Assembly (NCBI GenBank): GCA_963808235.1
Contig: CAWEEQ010000004.1
Coordinates: 2,080,001 to 2,144,000 of the forward strand
From: an uncultured delta proteobacterium
GTDB taxonomy: Bacteria > Desulfobacterota > Binatia > Binatales > Binataceae
Reading direction: 5' to 3'
Length of the DNA: 64,000 bases
A program made the translations under genes and the position numbers. Below, piece by piece: positions 46,501 to 64,000 of the stretch. Position 1 is the stretch's first letter. The number at the start of each line of letters is the position of its first letter. Under the pieces are notes generated by a model. It was not told where the DNA came from and did not search any database. It saw only the letters and a program-made list of their open reading frames with translations.

Positions 46501-47231
46501 AAGCCGGTTTCCGTGAGGTTGCGAAATCCGACCAGAAAGTGCGGTTTCCGTTTTGGGAAGTCCTCTCCGAGGTACAACTGAGCGTGGTCGATCACATTCG
46601 CGGAGACTGGGCACGTGCTCTGTCGCATGTGCAGGCCTCATCCCGCCCCGACCCTGGGATGAGTTCAATCATCGGACTCGCCGAAGGCGCGCTCTTCAGG
46701 CAGATGGCTTACGCGGGCGAGCGCGCCGGTGCGTTGGCTATCTTTCGTGAAAAGCGCGCACTGCTCCCTGGTAGCGGCCATCAGAACCTTAGAGGTTCGT
46801 GGTGGATGCTCGCGCTGGTAGTTGAGGGCCTCGTGATGCTCGGCGAGCAATCGCAAGCGGCGGAGTTCTACCCACTGGTTCGAGAGTTGGTCGCAACCGG
46901 TGCGGTAGCGCTGTGGCCGATCTCACGTTTGACGCAAACGATCGCGGGTATCGCGGCGGCAGCCGCTCATGAGTGGAGCGCCGCTGAAGACCACTTCAAG
47001 ATTGCGACGCAACAGGCTGAGTCATTTCCGCAGCGCCTCGAACTGGCGGAGATCAGACGCTTCCACGCGATGATGTTGATCGAGCGCGGCGCCCGAGGCG
47101 ATCGCGAGAAAGCGCGAACGCTGCTCGTCGAATCGCTTGACACCTACACGCAGATTGGCATGCCCCGCCATATCAAGATCGTTCAGGCTCTGCTCAACCA
47201 GGCGAGTGTCCGAATCAGTTCGACCGGCTAG
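43596..47231 (+). CDS. STAND/AAA_16 ATPase transcriptional regulator with N-terminal putative DNA-binding domain and C-terminal TPR-like repeats
   Basis: FVGRESE, Walker A GGPGVGKS, Walker B LEDLHWAD, FTFAHELVR; N-terminus FRKEGEYW...KGLGYLAHLL...ERARQSITK...IKTGTFCSY. Start may be ATG 43641. Confidence 0.85.
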   Translation: MVPLEFLSNPSGTNPMARETWSARSGSAGIVDLGPTAGAGQNEKGVFRKEGEYWTVGYGGKTFRLKDTKGLGYLAHLLRHPSVEFHVLDLAGGIASQREEDETIASAHGLPRGAEDLEKTGIHIASLGDAGEMLDEQAKSAYRRRLSELQEELEESKELGNVERAEQTEQEIDALTSELSRAVGLGGRNRRAASASERARQSITKTIKAVLDRIAQSDATLGSILSRCIKTGTFCSYLPDPDFPIAWEFEAIEPAEQPTFSVSNAPAPVESHGDAAHSAPAVLGVSPFSLAERTAFVGRESERGVIRAAIDRALEGHGSLIMLGGGPGVGKSRLAMEMGEYASRVGFRCLVGHCYERDEPFPFLPFAEILESSLAQAASRDEFRRRMGENAPELAQIAPSLRRAFPDIPQPLELPPAQRRRYLFQSVSEALGRASRTRSQLHILEDLHWADESTLGLLIHLANRVAQLPVVIIGTYRDGYSEHNSALVRTLEELIRMGTRPLKLGGLSRDAVAEMLHGLSRGRAPENLVSLIFEESQGYPFFVEEVYRHLVEEGKVFDAAGQFRTDIKIDDLDVPENVRLIIGRRLERFDESEKRVLAAAAMIGRSFSFRLLTAVSQIDVDDLFTVIEKAQQMGIIVASSQGPETPFTFAHELVRQTLLGRISAPRQQQLHAGVADAIELVYPRFVNERAGEITDHLLKAGSFADERRLVRYLTLAGKNALEAAAFEESRRSFKSALSYQGTRDPREKAELLVNLSAAELSLERWDAVLANLREALEIYTHLEDREMIGRSFVRLTNVLIWVGRFREAAETGRRGLDYLKGEVSATRGRLLAALGQAIAANGVCESATDALQEALNIASQLSDTKLEARVLGARSIVNLHFFRLREAAADGLLSEQLGGSELNPWQRALQLRVLHQTLVALGRVEEAIEIADQLEPLATRIGQAYSIALCLSTRTWLEFGKELDLAKLEAGFREVAKSDQKVRFPFWEVLSEVQLSVVDHIRGDWARALSHVQASSRPDPGMSSIIGLAEGALFRQMAYAGERAGALAIFREKRALLPGSGHQNLRGSWWMLALVVEGLVMLGEQSQAAEFYPLVRELVATGAVALWPISRLTQTIAGIAAAAAHEWSAAEDHFKIATQQAESFPQRLELAEIRRFHAMMLIERGARGDREKARTLLVESLDTYTQIGMPRHIKIVQALLNQASVRISSTG

Positions 47232-48375
47232 ATCCGTCGAACCGTAGAACAGCATACTTTGCGATGAGTCGCGCTGGTCGCAGGAAGTAGTACAAAAAAT
47301 ATAACGCGGGGGGAAGTTGCAAGGCTTTGTAATCGGCCCAGGAAGGTGCGAAGTGGCCGAGCAGGTAGCGCATACGATGTGGCGCTGACTCGAAAAGCCG
47401 CAAGCAGAAAGGGATTAACTCGGACTCCGGAGTCCGAATAGGCGCGCCTGCCAGCACCCGGTTTCTCACCTGCCGAACAAGTTCATCTACCGCGGTATCG
47501 GCAGGCAGCGTCAACGGCAGCGCGACCCCGAATAGATCCTCCGACAGCTTCAACCCAAGCAAAAGCTCGCGCATCGTGCCGGCGCGAGTCGACGCGGCTA
47601 TCACCTCGGGCCAACGCAAATTCGGAAAGGCGATCGCACATGATGCGACGTCGCAGATCCAGCCGAGGCGTTCGAAGGCATGCTTGGACCCGTGCGCGCA
47701 CAGCAACAGCAGTAGATGTTCCGGACACAGGAGTGGGATCGTGCGGCCGCAGAACGCAGTCGACACGAGCGATCGCCACACTACTTCGTGATCGAAAGGA
47801 CTCGCAAAATAGCTGGGCATGATCCGCCAATGCAGGTCCACGAAGTGGGAATCATCGACCAGCGAGATTTCCGCTTCTCTGCCGCGAAGAAAAGCAGAAT
47901 CGCACGGCCAGTGCAGAGGGCTTGCGACCCGGTAGCCTCGGGCGGTCAAAACGTCGCGGACTCGCAAGACATCGCGCGGATGAACCAGCCAATCGAGATC
48001 TGCGGAAGAGCGCATCGACAGATCGCCATAAAGTTGCTGACTCAGCGCGGGACCTTTCAACGGAACGAAATCGATCTCGTGTTCCTTAAACGATTCGGCC
48101 AATCTGCAGAGCTCTGCACTGAGTGCCAGGTTCCACCGGGTATTCTGTTGGAACGCCAGGCGAAGATTTTCCGCGGCGTGCGGCGGTATCGGGACCGATC
48201 CAAGCGCCCGGTAAAGCATCGGCGTAACGGCATGGCCTGACGAAAGGCGCATCAATTCGGCCCAGTCGATCCCGCCCGGGTCCGGTGGCGGATCTTCAGG
48301 ATGAAAAAACCGGCGCAATGCCGCGACCAGAAATTCGCACTCCCGGCTCACTGGAGGTTTTGGGCCGACCACCAC
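47215..48375 (-). CDS. Nucleotidyltransferase (NTP_transf_5 family, lasso-cluster type)
   Basis: LKGPALSQQLYGD..MRSSADLDWLV, VDLHW, LLLLCAHGSKH, WICDV. Confidence 0.88.
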   Translation of the reverse strand: MVVGPKPPVSRECEFLVAALRRFFHPEDPPPDPGGIDWAELMRLSSGHAVTPMLYRALGSVPIPPHAAENLRLAFQQNTRWNLALSAELCRLAESFKEHEIDFVPLKGPALSQQLYGDLSMRSSADLDWLVHPRDVLRVRDVLTARGYRVASPLHWPCDSAFLRGREAEISLVDDSHFVDLHWRIMPSYFASPFDHEVVWRSLVSTAFCGRTIPLLCPEHLLLLLCAHGSKHAFERLGWICDVASCAIAFPNLRWPEVIAASTRAGTMRELLLGLKLSEDLFGVALPLTLPADTAVDELVRQVRNRVLAGAPIRTPESELIPFCLRLFESAPHRMRYLLGHFAPSWADYKALQLPPALYFLYYFLRPARLIAKYAVLRFDGSSRSN

Positions 48376-50203: not shown

Positions 50204-51763
50204 GTGGTCAATCTGGAAGCCTCTGAGATTCCACCAGCTGGATTTTCGGCGCCTCGGTCGCGATACGCCGATTGGACCAAATGGAATCCGTTGCCTTGCG
50301 CCCTCGCGGTGCAGGCTGCGCTCCTGTTTTACCGCCTCGATCTGCTCGAACCGTGGGGCGACGAATGGTTCACTCTCACGATAGTTCCACAGCCGTTGAA
50401 CCAAATCCGCGCTGTCGTCGAACGAGTCGCCCATCCGCCGCTCTATTTCTTCCTGCTGCATTTCTGGATTCAACTTCCGTGGCCCGCAAGTCCGCTCACA
50501 AAGATGCGTGCGATGTCGGTCCTGTGGACCTTGCTAGCCACCGTAATTTTAGACCGGCTGTGGCTGATCGAATTGGAGCCGAGGGTGCGGCGAATGTTCC
50601 TTTCGCTATGGGTACTATCGCCTTGCCTGCTGCTCTACGCGCGGATGGCGAGGTCCTACAGCATGCAGTTGGCGCTGGCACTGCTCACGATCTACGCCGC
50701 GTCGAAATGGCTGGCTCGGCCGCAAAGTTTACGATGGCTGCTGGCGTATAGCTGCTCTTTGGTCGCGCTTCTATACACGCACTATTTGCCGGGCTTGGCG
50801 ATTATGGCATCAGCATGGATGTTATTACTTGCAAAGCCGGAGTTGTCGCCGAAGATCCGCATGATGATCGCCGCTGCGCCGATTCTGGCGATCGCGCTCT
50901 TGTACCTATCGGGGCTAACGTTTCCCTTTCTGGCGCTTGGTGCGTGGAGAGCTTCCACCACGTATCGTGTAGGAAACCCGTTCGTCGATCAGCTCGTCCG
51001 GTTCGCCTATTGGTTCGTGTCGTTCTGCTTCGGCGAGACGATTTCCGCGCTCAGCATCGTACTTGGCGCATTACTGACGCCCGCGATTGCGTTCGCGTTG
51101 TATCGCGGTGTGCGGTCGCGACCGGAATGGATGAGCCTCCTTGCCGTGGCTTCCCTGGTCGGTTACATCGGAGTGAGTCGATGGACCGGGTTCCCGTTCA
51201 CACCCGCCCGGGTTCTGTTCGCATTGCCTTTCTTTCTGATCCTGCTGGTGAAAGGAATTGATGCGGGCGCGCGCGGCTCCATCGTATTCGCGGGTCTTTT
51301 GGTCGTATACATTTCCGGCGACTATAGCTACTTCGCAAAGACCGGCTACTTGAACAAGGCGTATTGCGTGCCCTACCAAACGATGGCCGACGTTATCGTC
51401 CGCGACTCACCAGTCAGCGGCGCCGTGCTCCTTGTCGATGGATACAGCTCCGTCCCTGCCCCATTGCTGATTCGGTTGGGAAAAGGGATCAGAGTGATCT
51501 TCCTTGACGACGAACAATCGGCCGAGCCCGAAGTGGAGACGGTCCGGCATCAGACGGGCATCATATGGTTCTGGCGCCACACCAACGATACTTCGCCGGA
51601 CAAATTTGTCAGCCGCCTGGAAACGGATTTGGCTCAGGGCAGGACTGTGAAGGAATACGACTATCTCCCCTACTCGATGCCCGAGCGTTGGATACTGCGC
51701 TTCCTGCGTGGTCCTGGACAGCCCAATTACTTTTACCAGCTATCAGAGCTGAAGCTGGACTAA
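50204..51763 (+). CDS. GT-C fold membrane glycosyltransferase (GT39/PMT-like)
   Basis: WGDEWFT, HPPLYFFLLH, YARMARSYS, LYTHY; multiple TM helices. Confidence 0.8.
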   Translation: MVNLEASEIPPAGFSAPRSRYADWTKWNPLPCALAVQAALLFYRLDLLEPWGDEWFTLTIVPQPLNQIRAVVERVAHPPLYFFLLHFWIQLPWPASPLTKMRAMSVLWTLLATVILDRLWLIELEPRVRRMFLSLWVLSPCLLLYARMARSYSMQLALALLTIYAASKWLARPQSLRWLLAYSCSLVALLYTHYLPGLAIMASAWMLLLAKPELSPKIRMMIAAAPILAIALLYLSGLTFPFLALGAWRASTTYRVGNPFVDQLVRFAYWFVSFCFGETISALSIVLGALLTPAIAFALYRGVRSRPEWMSLLAVASLVGYIGVSRWTGFPFTPARVLFALPFFLILLVKGIDAGARGSIVFAGLLVVYISGDYSYFAKTGYLNKAYCVPYQTMADVIVRDSPVSGAVLLVDGYSSVPAPLLIRLGKGIRVIFLDDEQSAEPEVETVRHQTGIIWFWRHTNDTSPDKFVSRLETDLAQGRTVKEYDYLPYSMPERWILRFLRGPGQPNYFYQLSELKLD

Positions 51764-51769
51764 ACAGGA

Positions 51770-53500
51770 TTGACCTTGTCCCTATCTGACCGCCCTCTTC
51801 TGAAGCACCTACTGCCCGTGAGCGCGTGCGCCACGGCCTTGCTCGCGCTGGGCCTGACGCCGTATGTTGTCACTTGGCTCTCAGGATACGGCTTTTTATG
51901 TCCTACCCAGGGCGACATGCCGTACTACCTGCAGTTAGCCGCGCAGCCTTACTACAATCACTCTCTCTACCTTAGCGATCCTATGATCCAGGGTGGCCCT
52001 ACGTTCTATCCCTGGCTTCAATACATACCGCTGGTCTGCTTGACCCGATTGCTAGGCTTACCGATCTTTGCGATTCAGGTTCTGTGGACAATAGCGGCCG
52101 CGCTCGGAACGAGTCTTACACTCTACTTGTTGCTGTGGCTGGTCTGCCGAAACAGATGGCTTGCGGCAGCTATCACGATTTGCGCCTGGGCCGACATCGA
52201 CTTGGGTATGAACAGGATCGCCCACCGGCCCTTGTTCATACACCAGATCTACCTGGTCGCTTCCGACTTGATCGCGCACCTGCGGGGGCATCGCCTGGTG
52301 GACAGGCCATGGTTTCCCTGGCAATGGCGACTTACCAATCCGGCGTTGGACTTCCCGTTCCTGTTTCTTCAGTTGATCGCGACTTCCATCGCTCGCGAGC
52401 ATCCGAACCGGCGCAACCTCGTTCTTTCCGGCTTAGTCCTCGCGCTGACGTTCTATATCTATTTCTACCTGTGGACGATGATAGCCGTGGGGCTCGGCCT
52501 GGCGATCCTGGTCGATCGGCCCGGCCGCCGGACTTACGTCTGGACGTTGGCATTGGGATTCGCGCTCGGATGGCCGCAGATCGCTCATGATTACCTGGTC
52601 AGAAGTGCATCGTCGGCCGAGGGGCTGAGATATTTCGGGCTAACTACCGACCGCTTGACTACTCTGTCTAAATCTTCTCCATATTTTCATCCTTACCTGG
52701 TTATAGGTGAGCTGGTTATTCTCGGTGTCTGGATTACCCGTCGAAAGGTCCCCTCTCTCGTTCTGACGTGGTGCATTACTTGCGCCGGCGTGGGCCTCTC
52801 ATTGGTTAACTTTGTGACAAGTGTCTATCTGCACAACTACCACTGGTCATGGCTGGTCGCTCCGCTCATACACATTCTGATGGTAGCTGTCGCGCTCGAC
52901 CTGATTATGCTTTGGAAACCGAGGCTGCAGATACCTGTTTGGGTGGGCGCACTATTTGTCTGCGCATTTCTGGCCAGCGGAATCTATCTCACAGAATCCA
53001 CCCTCACGGTCGTCGACTACGACGAGACCACATCACTTTACTCTGAATATGTTCGCCAAAGACTTTCGCCCGGAGTAACGCCTCTTAAGCCTGGCGCGGT
53101 GATTGCGGGCGAATGGAACGTCGTCGATCTCGCCGCGATCGCGGAGCGACAGAGGCCGCTGCGCGGGCGATTTCTGGATAACAACGTGCTCCTTGACGAC
53201 AAGGAGCGGCGAGACCGGTTCGTCCTCGATCACTATCTATCTGGAATCGACACCCACGACGACTTCGCAGTTCGATTGAAGGAGTACTTCTTTATTCCCC
53301 ACCCTCAACTGCCAGCCTATCTGCACACCTTCGACGAAGTATCTCGCGATCCGGACCGCTTCATCGATGATCTTAAGGTACGCTACCTCGTGCTCCCAGC
53401 AACTCAGCCTATCCCGAAGTCCCTGAGCCGCAGGTGGAATCTCATCCAGCCGGGTCCCTACTTCCGGATTTGGGAATGGACTGACAGCGCTCCGAAATAA
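51770..53500 (+). CDS. Polytopic membrane protein, probable GT-C glycosyltransferase
   Basis: TM1 followed by QGDMPYY acidic loop, many TM helices, soluble C-terminus KVRYLVL. Confidence 0.55.
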   Translation: MTLSLSDRPLLKHLLPVSACATALLALGLTPYVVTWLSGYGFLCPTQGDMPYYLQLAAQPYYNHSLYLSDPMIQGGPTFYPWLQYIPLVCLTRLLGLPIFAIQVLWTIAAALGTSLTLYLLLWLVCRNRWLAAAITICAWADIDLGMNRIAHRPLFIHQIYLVASDLIAHLRGHRLVDRPWFPWQWRLTNPALDFPFLFLQLIATSIAREHPNRRNLVLSGLVLALTFYIYFYLWTMIAVGLGLAILVDRPGRRTYVWTLALGFALGWPQIAHDYLVRSASSAEGLRYFGLTTDRLTTLSKSSPYFHPYLVIGELVILGVWITRRKVPSLVLTWCITCAGVGLSLVNFVTSVYLHNYHWSWLVAPLIHILMVAVALDLIMLWKPRLQIPVWVGALFVCAFLASGIYLTESTLTVVDYDETTSLYSEYVRQRLSPGVTPLKPGAVIAGEWNVVDLAAIAERQRPLRGRFLDNNVLLDDKERRDRFVLDHYLSGIDTHDDFAVRLKEYFFIPHPQLPAYLHTFDEVSRDPDRFIDDLKVRYLVLPATQPIPKSLSRRWNLIQPGPYFRIWEWTDSAPK

Positions 53501-53525
53501 ATCTGTTCCCGGCCGATCGTGGAAA

Positions 53526-54666
53526 TCAGTTGCTATATCGCTCGGACAGATTCGCCGCCCTGGTCAGCGCGGCGTTCCAATTCTCGAAGCGTTCCGGATA
53601 TTGCGCGAGAAGCGCCTTTGCGATCTCATCGAGCGTAAGCTTCTGCAGCATGAGATCGAGCACCAGGCTGTCGATCCGCGAGTCTTCGTTGGGCTCCGGA
53701 ACAAAGCTATGTGCGCGTTTGCGCAGGCGGCCGGGCGAAAGCATTGCGCCATCGAAGGTCGATTGCCGAAACCGGGCCTTCACTCGCTCGCAACTCGTCA
53801 CCCGCGTTTCCCACGACCATTGGTAGTCCGACCGGACGAAGGCGGCGCGGAGCTGAACCTCGACCTGGTCGCCCGCCATCAGTTCGACGGCTTCAGGCCA
53901 TGGAAAGAACGAGTTGCTTGTAAACGTGCCGCTCGCCGGAGGCGGGCGAATTGGAATACCCCATCCCCGGGGCGGTTTCGCAATCAAACCAGGTGCACAG
54001 ACCGTGAGCCGTGGCGGCTCGATCGATCACCCACCGCATCTCGCCGTCAACGTTGATGCCCGCGAGGTTCTTGTAGTCCAGGGCCACCCATCGTTGCGGT
54101 GCCGCGATCAAGTCTTCCGCGCTAAGCCGAAATCCGAAATTGTTATTCACTGCTTTGAGACGCGCGCGGTCGAAATCGAATTGATACTCGTTGCCCCACG
54201 CACCGATGAACTTGTCGTAAAGCTCGCGGCAAGAGACAGGCGCGGCCCATATCGTGTCGCGTGCCGGGATGATCCAGCCGTCGGGCTTCAGAAATCTGTC
54301 GCGTGCGTCGAGAATCGAAACGATACTCTTGCCGAAAAGCGGACTGCCGCCGCGAATGTCCGCGACGATACCGTCGACCTTCTCTGGAAGATCGATATCG
54401 GTCGTCATCGCCTGAATGAATTCGATGCGGTCCGAAAACCCGTTGTCTGCCGCGATCTGCTCGGCGAGCTTGATCACGTCATCAGGTTCGACCGCGTAAA
54501 CTTTGCGAGCGCCGGCACGACACGCAAGAAACGCCATGATTCCAGGTCCGGCGCCGATATCCAAAACGACCGCGCCTGGCCGGACGTTAGCCCTCAGCGC
54601 GCGGTCATAAGATGAGGTACGCCCTTTGTCGGCGACCATTTCGCCGTAGGCTACGAGATCATACAT
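53526..54666 (-). CDS. PRMT-like class I SAM methyltransferase, 1-nt frameshift near 53914
   Basis: YGEMVADKGRT..Y, VLDIGAGPGI, VYAVE, ARDRFLKPDG.IIP, HGLCTWFD...SNSP; continues as SFFPWPEAV...DYQWSW in the next frame. Confidence 0.85.
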
Positions 54667-54684
54667 CCGGGCGCTTGAACCGGC

Positions 54685-54856
54685 TCAAGTATTGTCGGAA
54701 GTGTGGGTCCCGTCGCCAGTATCCTGCATAGTGTTTCTGTGCATCATTTTGGTGATGGACCCTAGATCGCCGTAGACTTGTACCTGCGGTTTGCCATACG
54801 GCTTCTTTCCTTCAGGGCTCACTGCTCGAGTCGTCCTTCTGATCTTCCAAAACCAT
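54685..54856 (-). CDS. Lasso peptide precursor A2: ...KKPYGKPQVQVYGDLGSITK-MMHRNTMQDTGDGTHTSDNT
   Basis: YxxPxVxxYGxLxxxT lasso leader motif; open from GTG 54822 to TGA 54685 (45 aa); ATG 54856 with GGAGG RBS is out of frame by an indel near 54830. Confidence 0.82.
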
Positions 54857-54876
54857 TGTTGCTCCCTCCCGACTAT

Positions 54877-54978
54877 TCAGTTTCGCGATGTTAGGTAACC
54901 ATAATAAAGTTCGCCCCCAGCCCCTCTTTCATCATCTATCTCGGCGACCATTTCGCCGTAGTTTACGAGATCATACAT
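54877..54978 (-). pseudogene. Truncated duplicate of the methyltransferase 5' end
   Basis: MYDLVNYGEMVAE versus MYDLVAYGEMVAD, then diverges to a stop. Confidence 0.75.
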
Positions 54979-54998
54979 CCTGATCGCTTTAGACCTTT

Positions 54999-55173
54999 TC
55001 AGGTGTTGTCCGAAGTATGCGTCCCGTCGCCAGTATCCTGCATAGTGTTTCTGTGCATCATTTTGGTGATGGACCCTGAGATCTCCATAGATTTGTAACT
55101 GCGGTTTGCTATACGGCTTCTTTTCTTTGGGTCCGACCGCCCCATCAACATCCTTCCGACTCTCCAAAACCAT
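54999..55173 (-). CDS. Lasso peptide precursor A1: MVLESRKDVDGAVGPKEKKPYSKPQLQIYGDL(R/G)SITK-MMHRNTMQDTGDGTHTSDNT, one extra base near 55077
   Basis: YSKPQLQIYGDL leader; removing 1 nt in CTCAGGGTCC restores a core identical to A2. Confidence 0.82.
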
Positions 55174-57008
55174 TCCTCAATCCCTCCTGACCATTCAATT
55201 TCATGACGTTAGAACACCATAACCAATGATTAAGAACAACCGGCCGCAGGTTCAGCCAGAACTCCCGCGCGTCGGTGGGCATCGTGCCTGGCACCTTCCG
55301 CGGATCCACGTACTTGAGAAGTTCTCCGGTCGGAACCAGCGGCGGCATCCCGGCGCGCCGAACGGCTTGAAATAGCGGAGATCTCAGCCAGCGGCGCCTT
55401 GTCCCTGCGAACCACTTCGTCCGGCAATATATTGCGCATCGCCCGCCTGAGCAAATACTTCCGCCGACACCATGGCAGAGCAGGCACCGAAAGCATATAG
55501 CGGAGCAGTCTCAGATCCACATACGGATGCCAAAACTCCACCGGCGCTTCCGTGAAACCGGGATCCATCGATTCGAACAACCTCGACCACGACGCGCTGG
55601 CGAATGACCCAAACCCAACGGGTCGGACCGGATGAAGCGAATTTGTGGGAGATTGCACCGTCTCCCATCGAGTGCGCGCGTGAATCCTCGATGCGAACTC
55701 ATCGTCAAGCCAGGGTGGAAATCCCGGTTGAGGCACTTCACCGCCGTTGCGCGTGACGTAAGATGCAATCGCCGACGTGGGAAGAACCCGCCGATGTGCG
55801 ATCGCATGCTGGAAAACATCTCGTATCAGTCTGCTCCAGAGGTGCTGTTGTGCCAGGTAACGGAGATACGGCTTCCATTCGTACATCAGCGCGTTGTCCG
55901 AGCCCTCTCCATAAAAGAACACGCGTCCATGTTCGGCCAGTCCGCGATATTCCTCGAGTTTGAACGCGCGCTTGACGGAATAGACTGCCGGTTCAGGAGT
56001 CCGAAAGGGACGGCTGTTCCACTCCCAATCTATTTGCTTGTCGTCGCACGATCGGTAGTGAATCGGAATACCGAGGTGCTGGGCGACCAACCCCGCATAG
56101 TAACGCTCCTCGTCAGGAATCAGATGATCGAAGACGTTGGTGAAGGCCTCCACCGCCGGTCGACGCTCCGAGAACTTGCACGCGGCCGCCGCGAGCGAGG
56201 TCGAGTCCAGTCCGCCCGACATGAACACACCAACCCACGGGGTGCGGGTTCGATCCCGGACTGCAAGCGTCAGTAATTCCGTGAAGCGATCCACGTAATC
56301 CGAGCTGCGCTTGTAGAACACCGGCTCATCGACCGGCATCGACCAGTAACTGCGCGCGACGCAATTGTCTTTTGAGATGGCGAGTGAATGAGCAGGCGCT
56401 AACCGCTGGATATCGGAAAAAATGGTCGTGGCTTTTTCCTGGTTCGTGCCGAAAAGCAAAAAATCGGCAACCGCCTGCTCGTTCAGCTTGCTGGAAACAT
56501 CCGGATGCCGCCGTACGCAGTTCAGAGTATTGCTGAAGACGAACGTTTTACCGGATCGAAAATAGTAGAAAGGTCTGACCCCCAGGTGATCGCGAGCGCA
56601 AAACACCCGTCGAATATGTCCGTCCCAGATCGCGAAGGCGAAATCGCCGAGCAAATGCTCTACGCACTCCTCTTTTAAGGCGTGGTATGCGTGCAGGATG
56701 AGTTCCGCATCAGGCGCCGCGGACACTACCTCCTGACCCTTTGATTTTAGCTTTTCAACCAGGTTCTCGCGGTCATCGATGCGCGCGTCAGCCGTGATCC
56801 AGACTTGGCCGTCCAGACTGAACGGCTGATGCTCCCGCTCGGACTCCCAGGTGGTCCGCAGCATCGTATGACCGAAGCCGACATTCCCCTCGATCCACAT
56901 GCTCTGCGCATCAGGACCCCGGAAGGCCTGATGATCGGTCATCTCCTTGAGCAATAGACGGTCGACCGGTGCGCCGTCCAAATTGACTATGCCGACGATT
57001 CCACTCAT
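55145..57008 (-). CDS. Asparagine-synthetase-like lasso cyclase (C protein), frameshift near 55350-55385
   Basis: MSGIVG (no catalytic Cys2), ARDHLGVRP, PP-loop SGGLDSTS, HPYVDLRL, KYLLRRAM...RDKAPL; tail YVDP...LRPVVLNHWL in the next frame. Confidence 0.87.
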
Positions 57009-58858
57009 TGCGAATTACGCGACTCAGCGGAAAGAGCCCGCGAGGAACCCTTCACCTTTTCCGGTTTGTTGGCTGGCAGCGCCCCGCTTACGACCTGCTG
57101 ATAGAAATTCTCCAATGCCACGACACTTCGCTTGTCCGAATAAAGTCCCTGCCAGCCGGCGACCAGACGTTGAACGACGCGCTCCCGCCATTCCCGATCG
57201 AGCCCAAGATTGACGGCGATCTCAACGTAGTCGGATTTGTCGCGCGCGATAGTCTCGGTCACTCCGAGCTGGGTCAGGATGGCATACGAGTGCCGGCCGC
57301 GCATGAACCTTCCCGGCAATGTCACCACGGGCAACTTGCATGCGATCGCCTCGAAGGTGGAATTGCAGCCGGACCATTCGATGTTATCCAGAAAAATGTC
57401 GCAGAGAGAATTGAGGTTCCAGTAAGTGATCTCGTCAACGGTTGGTACGAATACCACGCGGTCGGCAATCGGCACTCGGGCCGCGGAAAACGCTTTGTCG
57501 AGTCTTCGCTGGAAATCGTTTTTGAGCGCCTCGTTCCACGCAATGAAAACAAATTGCGCGTCCGGTACTCGCTTTGCGATCGCCGGGAACACGTCATCGT
57601 GTTGCGGCAGATACTTGATAGTCGACTGGCATGACAAGTAGGCGATAGCGTCGTCCCGAATCCCAAAATCCGCTCGCGTTTTGTAAAACAAAGCTCTGGG
57701 AATCACCGGCTTCCGGTAACAGATGCCGATACCGGGCAGAGAAACCAACTTTTCAGTATAGAAGCTCTGCGCGCCCTCAGGCTCCATCAGATCACTCGAC
57801 AAAAAGTAGTCGATCGTAGGCAGTCCCGAGGTCATGGGATGGCCCCAGGTGGTGCATTGGATCGGAGCCAGGCGCAGCGCTCCCAGTTGGGTCATTCGCG
57901 GATCCATCCCGATGTCCAGGAAGACCAGGACATGTAACTGATCCGAGAGGATCGCGCGGCAGGTCTCTTCCAGATCGCCCGCCAGGTGTCGGAAGCGGAA
58001 ACTTGCGCGCCGCGCATCCTCGGTCCGGCCGTCTGCCTCACTTCCGAGGTAATAGGAAAAAATCTGGAATCTGTCTCGACTGTGTTCCTCGAGCCATCCC
58101 AGGTGATCCTTGGCGACGCTATGATTGCGCAAATTGGCCGAGACGTAACCGATGCGCAGCTTGCCGTCATCCGGCGGCATTCGAAGCCGCTGCACCCAAT
58201 CCGGATAGTTCGCCGCCATGATGCGATGCGCGACGTCGCCGTACATCGCCTGGAGTGTTCGGTCATCGTGCCCTTGGTACGCGAGTTGAAAATTAACGTG
58301 ACGTTTGAGTCCCGCCAGGCAACTCTCCCTTTCCTCCGCAGTGTCGAGGCGCAGTCCATCCGCGATTTCGCGTAGACCTTCGGTGAACCGGCAGCGGTAC
58401 CGCTCAACTTCATCCGAATCCGAGTACAACATCGGCAGGAGCAGTCCCTCCTGGAGCTTGAATAAGAAATCGGAAGGAAACTTCGCGCGCGCAGCCCGAA
58501 CTATTTCAAGGGCGTCCGCGGTGCGATTGCTGTCTTCCAGGAGCCGGATGCATCGCCGATAAAGTTTCACCGGCGCCGCGCACTGCTTGATCCCCGTTCG
58601 AAGCGTGTCGATCGCGGCTTCGTACCCGCCAAGCGCCTCCTGACATCGCGCCGCCTCCATGTAGGCTTCCGGATCCCGATCGCGAACTCGCAACTCTGCG
58701 CAAGCCTTCTCCAACGCCGCCAGGTGCGCTTTGTGCTCTTCGACTTTGAACGATTCGCACTGTTGCCTGAAGATGTCTTTCACAGAATTCAATTGCAAAA
58801 AACTCTTCTCATGCAGTGCTGGAAATCTTTTCGTCGCTCGCGCGACCGCCATCGGCAA
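57005..58858 (-). CDS. TPR-containing O-GlcNAc transferase/SPINDLY-type glycosyltransferase (GT41)
   Basis: TPR-like N-terminus; LRIGYVS...HSV, LDIGMDP, RLAPIQCTTWGHP.TSGLPTIDYF, DIFLD..WSGCNSTFEA, LPVVTLPG..MRGR. True start probably ~58775-58800. Confidence 0.88.
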   Translation of the reverse strand: MPMAVARATKRFPALHEKSFLQLNSVKDIFRQQCESFKVEEHKAHLAALEKACAELRVRDRDPEAYMEAARCQEALGGYEAAIDTLRTGIKQCAAPVKLYRRCIRLLEDSNRTADALEIVRAARAKFPSDFLFKLQEGLLLPMLYSDSDEVERYRCRFTEGLREIADGLRLDTAEERESCLAGLKRHVNFQLAYQGHDDRTLQAMYGDVAHRIMAANYPDWVQRLRMPPDDGKLRIGYVSANLRNHSVAKDHLGWLEEHSRDRFQIFSYYLGSEADGRTEDARRASFRFRHLAGDLEETCRAILSDQLHVLVFLDIGMDPRMTQLGALRLAPIQCTTWGHPMTSGLPTIDYFLSSDLMEPEGAQSFYTEKLVSLPGIGICYRKPVIPRALFYKTRADFGIRDDAIAYLSCQSTIKYLPQHDDVFPAIAKRVPDAQFVFIAWNEALKNDFQRRLDKAFSAARVPIADRVVFVPTVDEITYWNLNSLCDIFLDNIEWSGCNSTFEAIACKLPVVTLPGRFMRGRHSYAILTQLGVTETIARDKSDYVEIAVNLGLDREWRERVVQRLVAGWQGLYSDKRSVVALENFYQQVVSGALPANKPEKVKGSSRALSAESRNSQ

Positions 58859-60188: not shown

Positions 60189-61373
60189 TTACGTAGCGAT
60201 CTTCAGCAGCCCTTCCTGGATTAGGCGCCGAACCAGGACGACCTTGGACTGCTCGGTGAGCATATCGGGCAGGTCATCGACCCGGAACCGCTCGTGTTTC
60301 GCAACGAATTCCAACGCTTCGGCTATACTTGGAGGACCGCTCACGACGCGCGTACCGAACTCGATACTCGCATTCGAATTCGTTCGGGTTACCCGGATGC
60401 TCCAGCCGAGGCGTCGGACCACCTCGGTGTGAGCCGCTATCGAACGTGCTCGCTCGATCGCGTTGAAATGAGGCTCCGGCGACGTCCGAAATTCGCGGCT
60501 GCGAGCGCCCGCGCATCGCGTCATCGCCTCCATCGCAACCTCGCGTCCCTGTACTGCCTTAAGAAGCGACGCGAACTCGCGCCCAATCTCGTCGGCTCGC
60601 GATTCGTCGCCCGGCGTAAACGACGGAACCGCATGGCGGAAAAGCTCGTTCCGCTCCGCGACGACGCGCAGACCCGCTTCCAGCAGATCGAGCCATCGAA
60701 GCGGGAAAATTCCGATCGTAAGATGCATCGACGGAACTTCGGTTCTCACCGCCTCATGGATGAATCCTCGCGGCAGATAAACAATTTGCCCCGGCTCCGT
60801 TGTTACTTCGAGGACCGGCGTGCCTAGCTCATGCTCCCCGCGTTTCACCACGGTTTCCTGCGGCTCCAGCGGCAACAGGTACTGCGGAGCGTAAACCCGC
60901 CATGACTTCCGACCCTCGAGTTGCAGGATGATCACGTCGTGCGAGTCGGCGTGCGCCGAAAATCCCTTCGCTTCCGACGGCGTGCAGTAAAGATTCACCG
61001 TGACCTTGTGCCCGATATCGAGCGCGACACCGCTCGCCAGCCGCGCCACCGGAGTGCTCCGCCGATGCAACTTGTGCACGCCGATACTCCAGCCCTTGGC
61101 GTAGGCCCGATAGATCGCCGACATGTCGGGGAGCCCGTCCGGCCCTCGCTCGACGGAGTACGACTCGACCCCGTAAGCATCGGACCGCACCATGTAGTCC
61201 TTCGAGCCTGACTCCTGCGCCGTCGTATGATCGAGGATCGCATCGAGGTCGTCGAACGTAGGCATGTCGCGGCACCAATCGGGCATCGGCCTCGCCACAT
61301 AGAGCGGCCGCTTCTCCCAGTACTCGGACCAGAACGTCGCGAGAGAAACCGGATCGATTAGCTGCTGCAACAT
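60189..61373 (-). CDS. JmjC/cupin-4 2-oxoglutarate Fe(II) oxygenase (RoxA/NO66-like)
   Basis: FWSEYWEKRP, NLYCTP, HADSHD, QLEGRKSW, YLPRGFIHEA, SMHLT; winged-helix-like tail LVRRLIQEGLL. Confidence 0.88.
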   Translation of the reverse strand: MLQQLIDPVSLATFWSEYWEKRPLYVARPMPDWCRDMPTFDDLDAILDHTTAQESGSKDYMVRSDAYGVESYSVERGPDGLPDMSAIYRAYAKGWSIGVHKLHRRSTPVARLASGVALDIGHKVTVNLYCTPSEAKGFSAHADSHDVIILQLEGRKSWRVYAPQYLLPLEPQETVVKRGEHELGTPVLEVTTEPGQIVYLPRGFIHEAVRTEVPSMHLTIGIFPLRWLDLLEAGLRVVAERNELFRHAVPSFTPGDESRADEIGREFASLLKAVQGREVAMEAMTRCAGARSREFRTSPEPHFNAIERARSIAAHTEVVRRLGWSIRVTRTNSNASIEFGTRVVSGPPSIAEALEFVAKHERFRVDDLPDMLTEQSKVVLVRRLIQEGLLKIAT

Positions 61374-61441: not shown

Positions 61442-61834
61442 TCACTTCCCCGCCTTCACGTATGCCTCGAGCGGCGGCGTCTTGGCGACGTGTCTAAGAT
61501 CGCGCGCGTTGGACAGTCCTTCGGAAAGCAAGTCCTCATCGCTGATCTCGACCCTGCCGTCCGCGCGCTTCGTGGATACTGACGCGGGCGGCAAAACCAG
61601 GTGCACCGAGTCCGCCGACGAAAGATGAACTTCGAGCGTCGTCTCAGCCGGTATGACGATTCCACACCGCCGCTCGAACACCTCTCTCGGATTCTTTTGC
61701 AGCTCGCGCGCAAAGTCCGGATTTCGCATCGCCTCGGTAAGCATCGCCACCACTCGCGAGCTCCGCATCGAGGCCGGAATCGACAGCACGCAAGCGAGCA
61801 CGAGCTGCACTTCGAGTTTGGGCTGCTCGCCCAT
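61442..61834 (-). CDS. Nitrile-hydratase-like leader peptide (NHLP)-type protein
   Basis: AMRNPDFARELQKNPREVFE...GIVIP...LEVH...VHLVLPP...EISDEDL; TAATG coupling to the upstream gene. Confidence 0.65.
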   Translation of the reverse strand: MGEQPKLEVQLVLACVLSIPASMRSSRVVAMLTEAMRNPDFARELQKNPREVFERRCGIVIPAETTLEVHLSSADSVHLVLPPASVSTKRADGRVEISDEDLLSEGLSNARDLRHVAKTPPLEAYVKAGK

Positions 61835-64000
61835 TAGTCCTTGCTCATCGACGAGATATCGCGAAAAATCGTGACCGAATTGGCCGGAGCATAACATGCG
61901 ATTCCGCTCGCTGTACAGGCTCCTTTTGCGTGCGCGGGGCTGGCGACTGCCGAGGTTCGAATCGCGCCGAGAGCTTGCGGCGCAAACACCATTAGCAGCA
62001 GTTGCGGTGATGCCGCCCCGCCGTCCAGGTGGCCCACATATTGGGCAGGATAGGGAAAATAGATTTTCTCCGCGATGCTGCCATAGTTCGAAAGCACCGA
62101 GCGCAATCCCTGTGGCGTGCCGACGACGCCGATCGCTATAGCTCCATCATCCCACGGCCCCAGCCAGATTCCGGCGGTCGTGGCCGCAAACTTGGGCGCC
62201 GGGCCCAGCTCCTGTGCGAGCCGGTACCTGAGCGGGACAGTCCGCATGATCCACGATACAATCCGCTGGAACGAGGCTCTTCGGCGGATCGCGCTGATTG
62301 GCCAGTAGCCGTACACCTGGGATCGAGGTTCATCTCGCACCACTTCCGGCGGCAGCCCCATCGATGCGGCCTGCACCGGGCTGAGCTTGTCGAGCGGCTT
62401 CCCCGAAGCAAGGTAACTTTGCGCGGCCCCAAAGAGCATCCGGAAGCGGAGCAGGTTGTAGCGCGATTCCATCTCGTCCGCCCCCAGACTGCGATACGGA
62501 GCGAGACTTTCGCGGTCGATGCGGTAGAGAAAAACCCCGCCGACGTCGACTCGTTGCGCGCTTACCGTGGAGACCAGACGGCCATAGGCGGCATAGTCGC
62601 CCTCTTTGACGACGATCGCGCTGACATCGTGATCTGCAATGAACGCTTTGAACTGGTCCTCATAACCGGGGATATATGGTGCGTCCTTGTTCAGAGCGTC
62701 GACGATCGGCCACGCCTGGAACTCGTGCGGCACGATCCCGAGCAGCCCTTGCGGCATCCGGAAGTAGAACTTGCTGGACGACTGCCAGAGCATACAGTTG
62801 CCGCTCTCTCCGTAAGGCAGAATAAGCACGGTCTCGTCGCGCTTTAGATAGTTCGCGTAAATCCCGTCGCGAAAGAATTCCGGTAAATCCGCCTTGCCGA
62901 TCCACCGGCTGAACGGGATCGCGGGCATCAGCGAAACAACTACCGCGCCGGCCAGCAGCCACCGGAGTGGACTCGGCTTGCCGGCCGGTTCTGCTTCTGC
63001 CAGCCACAACGCCACGATCAATCCTCCCACAAGGAACGCGTACATCATGAACCGGGCCGGCAACGCATTGTTCAGGATCGGTACCGGCACCGCCCAGATC
63101 CATAGCCACGGCGCGACCCCGAAACCGCTCACATGCAGAACCGGCCCGATCGAGGCGATACAGATCAGAGCAAGCATCGCGGTCAGGTAACGGGCTAGAT
63201 CGCGTCGAGGCGATCGCCAGAGAAACAACGCACCGAGCACGGGCAGCAGGCCAAGGTAGCCGGCTGCCTCTTTGAGATCGTCGTTGCGAATCGTCACCGC
63301 GTTCAAGGAAGGGAGCCAGGCACCCATCGCACTGACCCCGGTGGGAAAGAAAAAATTCAGCAGATCGGTCGAGCAATGCGCCGGGTTGTAGATCGGAAGC
63401 CAGTCATATTGCCTGGCGAGGAACCTGACCAGGTATGGCGACAGAACCACGATCGCAACGCCGTAAGCGATCGTCAGCGAAACCGCCGCCCTCTTGAACT
63501 CGGCCATGTTGATCTCAGGAAAAAATCGCCGCGCCGCTACTATTGCCAGCGCGCCGAAGATTGTCGCCGTAGCAAAGATCTCCGGAGAAAGGAGGAACTG
63601 AAAAACCAGGCAAGCCGCGAACCACATTACAAAGGTGATGCGCCCCAGGCGCCCATGCCAATGCAGCAGCACGAGCCACGGCAGAATCGGAATGACGAAC
63701 ACCAGGACCAGGTCCAGATGCCCGGTGAGCTGCTCCTGCATATACGGAGAGAAGCCGAAGATGCCTCCGCCGATTAGCGCTGGCCAGAACGCGCCGGTGA
63801 CATAGCGGTAAAGGACGAATGCGGTGAACGAAGCGAGGATTGGAGCGAGCAAGGTGAGGACGTTGTAAGACGCAACCACGCCCACTATACGGGTCAGCGG
63901 CCAGGCGGCGAGACTCGCACCGGGAATCGTGGTTGCCCATGCCAGATTAAAGCCGCTGGGAGCCCACACCACACTGGTTTCAAGCGGGACTAGGCGATGG
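61834..64000 (-). CDS. Large polytopic membrane protein, probable GT-C/YfhO-like glycosyltransferase, 5' end outside the window
   Basis: Frame open to the edge; WAPSGFNLAW, FGFSPY...GHL, STDLLNFFFP, GYLG, PARF, LILPYG. Confidence 0.7.
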   Translation of the reverse strand, partial: HRLVPLETSVVWAPSGFNLAWATTIPGASLAAWPLTRIVGVVASYNVLTLLAPILASFTAFVLYRYVTGAFWPALIGGGIFGFSPYMQEQLTGHLDLVLVFVIPILPWLVLLHWHGRLGRITFVMWFAACLVFQFLLSPEIFATATIFGALAIVAARRFFPEINMAEFKRAAVSLTIAYGVAIVVLSPYLVRFLARQYDWLPIYNPAHCSTDLLNFFFPTGVSAMGAWLPSLNAVTIRNDDLKEAAGYLGLLPVLGALFLWRSPRRDLARYLTAMLALICIASIGPVLHVSGFGVAPWLWIWAVPVPILNNALPARFMMYAFLVGGLIVALWLAEAEPAGKPSPLRWLLAGAVVVSLMPAIPFSRWIGKADLPEFFRDGIYANYLKRDETVLILPYGESGNCMLWQSSSKFYFRMPQGLLGIVPHEFQAWPIVDALNKDAPYIPGYEDQFKAFIADHDVSAIVVKEGDYAAYGRLVSTVSAQRVDVGGVFLYRIDRESLAPYRSLGADEMESRYNLLRFRMLFGAAQSYLASGKPLDKLSPVQAASMGLPPEVVRDEPRSQVYGYWPISAIRRRASFQRIVSWIMRTVPLRYRLAQELGPAPKFAATTAGIWLGPWDDGAIAIGVVGTPQGLRSVLSNYGSIAEKIYFPYPAQYVGHLDGGAASPQLLLMVFAPQALGAIRTSAVASPAHAKGACTASGIACYAPANSVTIFRDISSMSKD

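Follow-up and report, generated by a model that had tools for sequence, protein, structure and literature searches.

The window, by which is meant the whole stretch of 64,000 nucleotides analysed here, carries a gene cluster that runs in one direction, from just past the window's end down to 53526. Its genes follow one another in the order second PqqD, B2, a membrane protein of ~779 aa, JmjC_2, PqqD (B1), HPr-kinase-like protein, TPR-GT41, cyclase, precursor copy 2, precursor copy 1 and methyltransferase. The B2 and second PqqD genes stand at the start of the operon, 300-1040 nt past the window's end (approximately window positions 64303-65042; L025 1474-1995 and 1926-2213). The features of the cluster, including the open reading frames (ORFs) as assembled, are listed below from its start to its far end.

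Beyond the window end, minus strand: second PqqD-type recognition protein, 59.2 bits
C4:2144330-2144665 (PF13471), minus strand: B2 protease, transglutaminase-like, 90.9 and 90.1 bits
61834..64000, minus strand: large membrane protein of ~779 aa without a family match, passing the window end, with its true start ~173 nt beyond
60189..61373, minus strand: JmjC_2 (cupin) oxygenase, kept in the same-genus relatives L029 and L030
59790..60074, minus strand: PqqD-like leader-binding protein (B1, RiPP recognition element); PF05402 70 bits, NF033536 68.7 bits
58789..59790, minus strand: HPr-kinase-like protein, candidate peptide kinase; Hpr_kinase_C E 3.3e-6, 27.2 bits against a cut-off of 33.3 bits; HprK-related models
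57005..58858, minus strand: TPR + GT41 (O-GlcNAc-transferase-like) glycosyltransferase, between kinase and cyclase
55145..57008, minus strand: putative lasso cyclase (asparagine-synthase-like, C); Pfam Asn_synthase and GATase_7, NF033535 376.6 bits
54999..55173, minus strand: putative precursor copy 2 (upstream copy), ATG 55173, stop 54999-55001, AGGAGGG ribosome-binding site upstream
54999..55151, minus strand: 50-aa ORF, whose last 20 residues are the last 20 of the 45-aa ORF
54877..55173, minus strand: chimeric ORF of 98 aa in the ORF listing
54877..54978, minus strand: methyltransferase 5' remnant, a dead 33-codon ORF, whose first 13 codons match the true methyltransferase start
54685..54856, minus strand: putative precursor copy 1 (downstream copy), ATG 54856, stop 54685-54687, ribosome-binding site GGGAGGGAG 5 nt before the ATG
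54685..54822, minus strand: 45-aa ORF with a GTG start; reads MSPEGKKPYGKPQVQVYGDLGSITKMMHRNTMQDTGDGTHTSDNT, GTG written as M
53526..54666, minus strand: methyltransferase, PRMT fold with a C-terminal extension of ~110 aa
48348-50159, minus strand: ABC transporter, far end of the cluster
47215-48375, minus strand: NTP_transf_5 nucleotidyltransferase, far end of the cluster

Both precursor copies are preceded by a strong ribosome-binding site. As assembled, copy 2 changes frame at 55078, between leader and core, and copy 1 changes frame near 54831, between ATG 54856 and the conserved part of the leader. When base 55078 is skipped, copy 2 reads as 57 codons, made up of a 37-residue leader and a 20-residue core; when base 54831 is skipped, copy 1 reads as 56 codons, 36 of them leader and 20 the identical core. 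The preliminary description of this DNA had proposed two hidden tandem precursor genes with the same 20-residue core, and alignment of the repeats together with translation confirms them. It had also considered translation of copy 1 from GTG 54822. This start was tried and given up: GTG 54822 has no good ribosome-binding site, ATG 54856 has one, and with the frame restored ATG 54856 is the true start and the GTG is not needed. A scan of the region returned no promoter-like sites and six terminator-like sites, against 3.6 ± 1.9 in shuffled sequences, which is no signal, and a search of 53000-57500 against Rfam gave no match at E ≤ 1.

The two copies lie in a tandem duplication of ~314 bp, whose units are 84.9% identical. 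Aligned with gaps, the units share 236 of 278 bases, with 12 gap letters and a longest identical run of 57 nt. A search for direct repeats found four blocks, with spacings of 312 to 317 nt, and the steps of the spacing from 314 to 315 and then to 317 coincide exactly with the indel positions given in the preliminary description. The units and blocks are as follows.

54936..55222: duplication unit 2, with the true cyclase 3' tip, ribosome-binding site, precursor copy 2 and the methyltransferase 5' remnant
54624..54904: duplication unit 1, with the copied cyclase 3' tip, ribosome-binding site, precursor copy 1 and the first ~14 methyltransferase codons
Repeat block D1: 79 nt, 94%
Repeat block D2: 62 nt, 81%
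Repeat block D3: 45 nt, 91%, 54936-54980 against 54624-54668
Repeat block D4: 24 nt, 83%

One duplication of ~314 bp would have copied the last cyclase codons, the ribosome-binding site, the precursor gene and the first ~14 methyltransferase codons; the remnant at 54877-54978 now forms the tail of the chimeric 98-aa ORF. A contig from another study, X2, bridges the junction of the units (54834-54971), so the duplication is not an assembly artefact, and it was seen in runs from two studies. Divergence between the copies is uneven. It is nil over the central 57 nt, free in the N-terminal leader and in the flanks, and near saturation at the synonymous sites of the last seven core codons. We read this pattern as an older duplication with central gene conversion and purifying selection on the core, though other histories are possible. 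In the same-genus genome G016, two tandem precursors of the same family occur with different cores (L009 1471-1635 and 1741-1905). Tandem precursors therefore arise repeatedly in the family, and identical cores are seen in the window only.

Two further frame breaks lie nearby. The methyltransferase is split near 53910 into ORFs of 257 and 153 aa, and the cyclase acquires a false tail from ~55380, giving an ORF of 592 aa. The stretch 53800-55500 was compared with contigs of four soil-metagenome runs from three studies, one of which may be the source sample. The run contigs have a low depth of 2.7-4.65, some runs have gaps in cover within this stretch (e.g., ~54972-55052), and only a single run reaches site 55078. 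Contig X1 differs from the window by six substitutions and a 3-nt in-frame deletion at 55142, and the window's strain is not read directly in it. The extra base of the window is absent from every run that covers a break site, as listed here.

53910, methyltransferase: base absent in X1 and X2, and in X6 (53910/11, loose contig ends, by eye)
54831/54833, precursor copy 1: base absent in X1 (54831) and X6 (54833), and in X2 (54833, loose ends, by eye)
55078, precursor copy 2: base absent in X1
55379/55381, cyclase: base absent in X1 and X6 (55379) and X2 (55381), and in X3 (55381, loose ends, by eye)

At two of these sites the letters of the window combine two real alleles, CG versus TC at 54831-33 and GA versus AG at 55379-81, a pattern that we infer to be typical of a mixed-strain consensus error. 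With all four bases skipped, not only the precursors but also their neighbors are whole: the cyclase reads through 620 aa (base 55379 skipped) and the methyltransferase through 379 aa (base 53910 skipped), and the intact counterparts in the same-genus relatives L029 and L030 have 604 and 379 aa, respectively. To gauge the quality of the assembly, it was compared with 227 intact ORFs, each 300 aa or longer, that lie in 400 kb of a same-genus genome. Over ~301 kb aligned, the window's assembly showed 42 frame switches against that genome (~38 distinct sites by eye), or about 0.13 for each kb of coding sequence compared, and the sites often stand 4 to 6 together in a cluster. Elsewhere in the window's genome, six such sites fall within C4:3151037-3154447 and four within C4:3043206-3044190, and other genes that look broken or hidden in this genome may be the same artefact.

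The frame breaks at the locus appear to be single extra bases from assembly and not biology. The preliminary description had suspected that the indels near 54820-54840 and 55070-55085 were unreal, a suspicion borne out by run contigs that lack one base at 54831/54833 and at 55078. Programmed frameshifting was considered as a source of the breaks and rejected, since other runs do not have the bases and all relatives are single-frame.

The 60-nt cores of the two copies specify one and the same 20-residue sequence. Their five differences all fall on third-codon positions and are all synonymous (Sd = 5, Nd = 0), just as first described. Of the 180 single-base changes that the core allows, only 34 are synonymous, and under uniform mutation five synonymous changes out of five would arise by chance with a probability of ~2.4e-4. 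The leaders, also as first described, differ in their amino acids (Sd 8.5, Nd 11.5 and one codon indel). These differences are almost wholly N-terminal, ahead of the recognition motif, and all leader recognition residues are kept in both copies. Each copy has a further synonymous variant in run X2, at 54691 and at 55123 (codon positions calculated). The earlier proposal of purifying selection on the core is supported by these comparisons of sequence, namely by the five synonymous differences out of five between the pair, by the wider family and by the synonymous variant at 54691 in X2. The proposal that the frame of the core is the real frame likewise holds, as leader and core are read in one frame by all eight of the closest homologues and by the same-genus genomes.

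These eight closest database homologues are single-frame genes of 56-66 aa with an ATG start. Compared with the window's core, theirs have 3 to 6 of the 20 positions changed; core positions 3-4, 8-9 and 11-13 and the last six residues are invariant, and the C-terminal residue is Thr in all eight. Same-genus genomes have one precursor, in one frame, between cyclase and methyltransferase, and in every relative examined the precursor directly follows the cyclase. A pattern scan extended the family to 7 genome loci and 65 soil-metagenome loci, the genome loci being recorded as 'uncultured delta proteobacterium' or as Acidobacteriota lineages. Thr at position -2 precedes all 63 distinct cores of the relatives. 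Asp or Glu occurs at core positions 7-9 in 58 of the 63, at position 9 only in 52 of these, and the core ends in Ser or Thr in 54 (Ser 34, Thr 20). Core position 1 is A in 19, T in 18, S in 16, H in 4, G in 3, N in 2, K in 1 and M in none. Not one of the 67 precursor-bearing related loci has a second copy. Five related cores (e.g., L032, L037, L038, L040, L079) have no Asp or Glu at positions 7-9 and carry their first acidic residue at position 10 or later, which would mean a larger ring or another cleavage site.

The recognition motif of lasso leaders is worded YxxPxL(x3)G(x5)T-x. Both leaders in the window fit YxxPxL...G...T-x with Thr at -2, copy 1 having Val and copy 2 Leu at the L position. 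Both the YxxPxL motif and Thr(-2) are named for lasso leaders in the available text of PMC10368454. Asp9 in both cores fits the Asp or Glu ring acceptor at core position 7-9. Core position 1 is Met in both copies and not one of the small residues (Gly, Ala, Ser, Cys) typical there; according to a survey cited in the accessible part of PMC13632552, every residue except Pro is seen at this position among predicted precursors. The 45-aa ORF of the window scores 19.1 bits against NF033528 ('lasso peptide'), whose cut-off is 33 bits. This model is matched at E ≤ 1 by all 18 aligned family members, the best at 6.7e-9, and NF033521 is matched by 14 of the 18. The cyclase, PqqD and kinase matches also lie below curated NCBIfam or Pfam cut-offs. 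The genes B1, B2 and cyclase C of the lasso set are all present and encoded together. Judged by their sequences, the two genes are putative precursor (A) genes of a class-II-type lasso peptide, and the product is a predicted one. It is very probable, in our estimate, that the locus holds two intact lasso precursor genes that were hidden by assembly errors.

Three other explanations were weighed against this reading. The frameshifts might be real and the cluster decaying, which would make pseudogenes of copy 2, the cyclase and the methyltransferase and leave copy 1 alone translatable, from GTG 54822. The assembled sequence does have the four extra bases, the runs differ slightly from the window and have low depth, and contigs drop rare variants. 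Yet for such decay a single base must have been inserted four times over, independently and within 1.5 kb, in a strain whose relatives at ~99.6% identity carry none of the four. The union of two alleles at two sites and the clustered frame switches elsewhere in the assembly (~0.13 per kb) count against it as well, as do the lack of a good ribosome-binding site at GTG 54822 next to the good one of ATG 54856 and the purely synonymous differences between the cores, so that real decay is considered improbable. It is about equally improbable that the frames are intact and the second copy is a neutral by-product of duplication, its core identical through recency or gene conversion and not through selection. 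The 57-nt identical run at the center of units otherwise 15% diverged does suggest gene conversion, the useless methyltransferase remnant was copied too, and no other family locus (0 of 67) has two copies. Beyond the identical run, however, the last seven core codons contain five differences, all synonymous, a pattern that calls for purifying selection acting on the two copies or on their donors. Each copy also retains a strong ribosome-binding site and every leader recognition residue, and the duplication is present in the runs of two studies.

Far less probable than either of these is that the small genes are not lasso precursors at all, but encode small proteins that stay unmodified or serve another peptide-modification pathway as substrates. 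The atypical Met at core position 1, the profile score under the curated cut-off and the several cluster enzymes not known from lasso pathways would suit such a view. Set against them are the leader motif, Thr(-2) and Asp9, which fit the lasso pattern, the position of the genes directly after the cyclase in every relative examined, the presence of PqqD, B2 and cyclase, and the matches of all 18 family members to lasso-precursor profiles. Two intact lasso precursor genes, masked by extra bases of the assembly, are retained as the preferred reading in what follows.

The tailoring genes around these precursors include several of unusual kinds. Residues 9-269 of the methyltransferase match the PRMT1, 2, 6 and 8 chains with E 1.6e-39 in a sequence search of solved structures. 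PRMT_C is matched in the methyltransferase of L029 with 35.4 bits (cut-off 27), and the fold of the PRMT catalytic core, with SAM-binding domain and beta-barrel, is present. In PRMTs, two glutamates of the double-E loop hold the substrate arginine. In an alignment of the window's enzyme with PRMT2, Asp stands opposite the first loop Glu and Gly opposite the second, and Arg is absent from the cores beside the methyltransferase in relatives L029 to L032 and L034. That the enzyme methylates the conserved Arg4 was considered, and rejected as its likely role, on both grounds: with the double-E loop lost and the relatives' cores without arginine, methylation of arginine by the PRMT-fold enzyme is unlikely as judged from sequence. 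Its C-terminal ~110 residues (53526-53900, minus strand) have no Pfam match and no PDB sequence match, yet this extension is conserved. It appears helical by eye and might be a peptide-binding domain.

The HPr-kinase-like protein scores 31.4 bits against TIGR04352, whose cut-off is 200. The GT41 gene is absent at the same position in the same-genus relatives L029 and L030, and is thus a lineage-specific gain in the window's cluster. Two PqqD recognition proteins are found also in relatives L029, L030 and L032. Three large predicted membrane proteins (519, 576 and ~779 aa), encoded at 50204-53500 on the plus strand and 61834-64000 on the minus strand, have no family match, and two of the three have counterparts of 65-77% identity next to the cluster in relatives. 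A protein with long collagen-like Gly-Pro-Thr triplet repeats is encoded immediately upstream of the cluster, at L025 2637-3335 on the plus strand (approximately window positions 65466-66164).

A route to the product can be proposed, with steps taken from the established lasso pathway and inferred for the window's locus. A PqqD-type recognition protein would bind each precursor of 56 or 57 aa by its leader motif, and the transglutaminase-like B2 protease would cut after Lys(-1), one residue past the conserved Thr(-2). The asparagine-synthase-like cyclase would then join the N-terminus of Met1 to the side chain of Asp9, giving a nine-residue ring through which the 11-residue tail would be threaded and trapped. 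For the core less one water, the calculated mass is 2230.879 Da ([M+2H]2+ 1116.447). The HPr-kinase-like enzyme would tailor the peptide, with the conserved C-terminal Thr as its probable target. Further tailoring may come from the PRMT-fold methyltransferase, the JmjC oxygenase and the GT41 glycosyltransferase, and the ABC transporter would export the product. By analogy, an HPr-kinase homologue together with a conserved C-terminal hydroxyl would point to phosphorylated lasso peptides. Since both genes would give the same 20-residue product, the duplicate would most simply raise output; the second copy may raise dosage or permit differential translation. A dosage role has no precedent in the family, where none of the 67 related loci has a second copy. 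The cleavage site, the ring, the threading, all the tailoring chemistry and the role in dosage are thus proposed by analogy with the established pathway.

A more far-reaching interpretation would make the product a new chemical subtype. Here a Met1-Asp9 ring would be decorated by the PRMT-fold enzyme (without the arginine-binding glutamates and with an additional C-terminal domain), by JmjC and by GT41, atop phosphorylation of Thr, and selection and gene conversion would have kept the duplicate identical in its core for high output. We put this forward tentatively, as a possibility that is more doubtful than probable.

Short precursor genes are easily lost in long-read metagenome genomes with indel errors. 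Gene callers here report a chimeric ORF of 98 aa and not two precursors; it was the repeat copies and their purely synonymous differences that recovered the real frame, and independent runs agree with it. The same kind of error falsely splits the cyclase and the methyltransferase, so cluster-mining tools would score the cluster as broken. The family itself is a large, uncharacterised one of kinase-associated lasso precursors, present in soil metagenomes and in genomes. In the main texts of the literature searched, no PRMT-type enzyme linked with lasso peptides and no JmjC in lasso clusters was found; bacterial JmjC homologues are said in passing to occur in RiPP-like contexts (PMC12710340, available text). 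The unusual residue at position 1 and the tailoring genes not described for lasso peptides in that literature make the cluster a reasonable target for heterologous expression.

Among known systems, the peptide itself is new and the kind of gene is known. No new kind of system is opened, and Met1 and the tailoring genes are the unusual points. The paeninodin and pseudomycoidin type (PadeK, ThcoK, SyanK, PsmK, PsmN) has in common with the window a split B1/B2, a cyclase, an HPr-kinase homologue (in the window a candidate one), a nucleotidyltransferase and an ABC transporter in one cluster, as far as described in the available text of PMC9266682 and PMC8498205. A conserved C-terminal hydroxyl residue is also shared, although the acceptor there is Ser (PMC9266682, available part) and the residue in the window's core is Thr. 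In contrast to what is described for the paeninodin type in the same texts, the kinase match of the window lies below the Pfam cut-off, there are two PqqD genes, and the host belongs to an uncultured soil lineage. The window further adds a PRMT-fold methyltransferase, a JmjC oxygenase and GT41, which are not described for that group in the available portions of PMC9266682 and PMC8498205.

The BsfA system of Bradymonadales, with predicted precursors in Acidobacteriaceae and Sphingomonadales, is likewise kinase-associated, has the YxxPxL leader and comes from related soil or environmental phyla (PMC10368454, in its accessible part). According to the same text, however, BsfA-type precursors have Ile or Val at -2 and a phosphorylated Ser3, whereas the window's family has Thr(-2) and the window's core has no Ser3. 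Metanodin, a lasso peptide from a soil metagenome, resembles the window's product in its unusual residue at position 1 and in Thr(-2) (PMC12670498). It has Asn1 instead of Met1 and comes from another host lineage, and no comparable tailoring set is mentioned in the available text of PMC12670498. Palassoptides A1 and A2, as presented in the available part of PMC13632552, are encoded by two precursor genes beside one maturation cassette, as in the window, and have Phe and Glu at position 1. Their two cores differ and act together, whereas in the window the cores are identical and the leaders alone differ.
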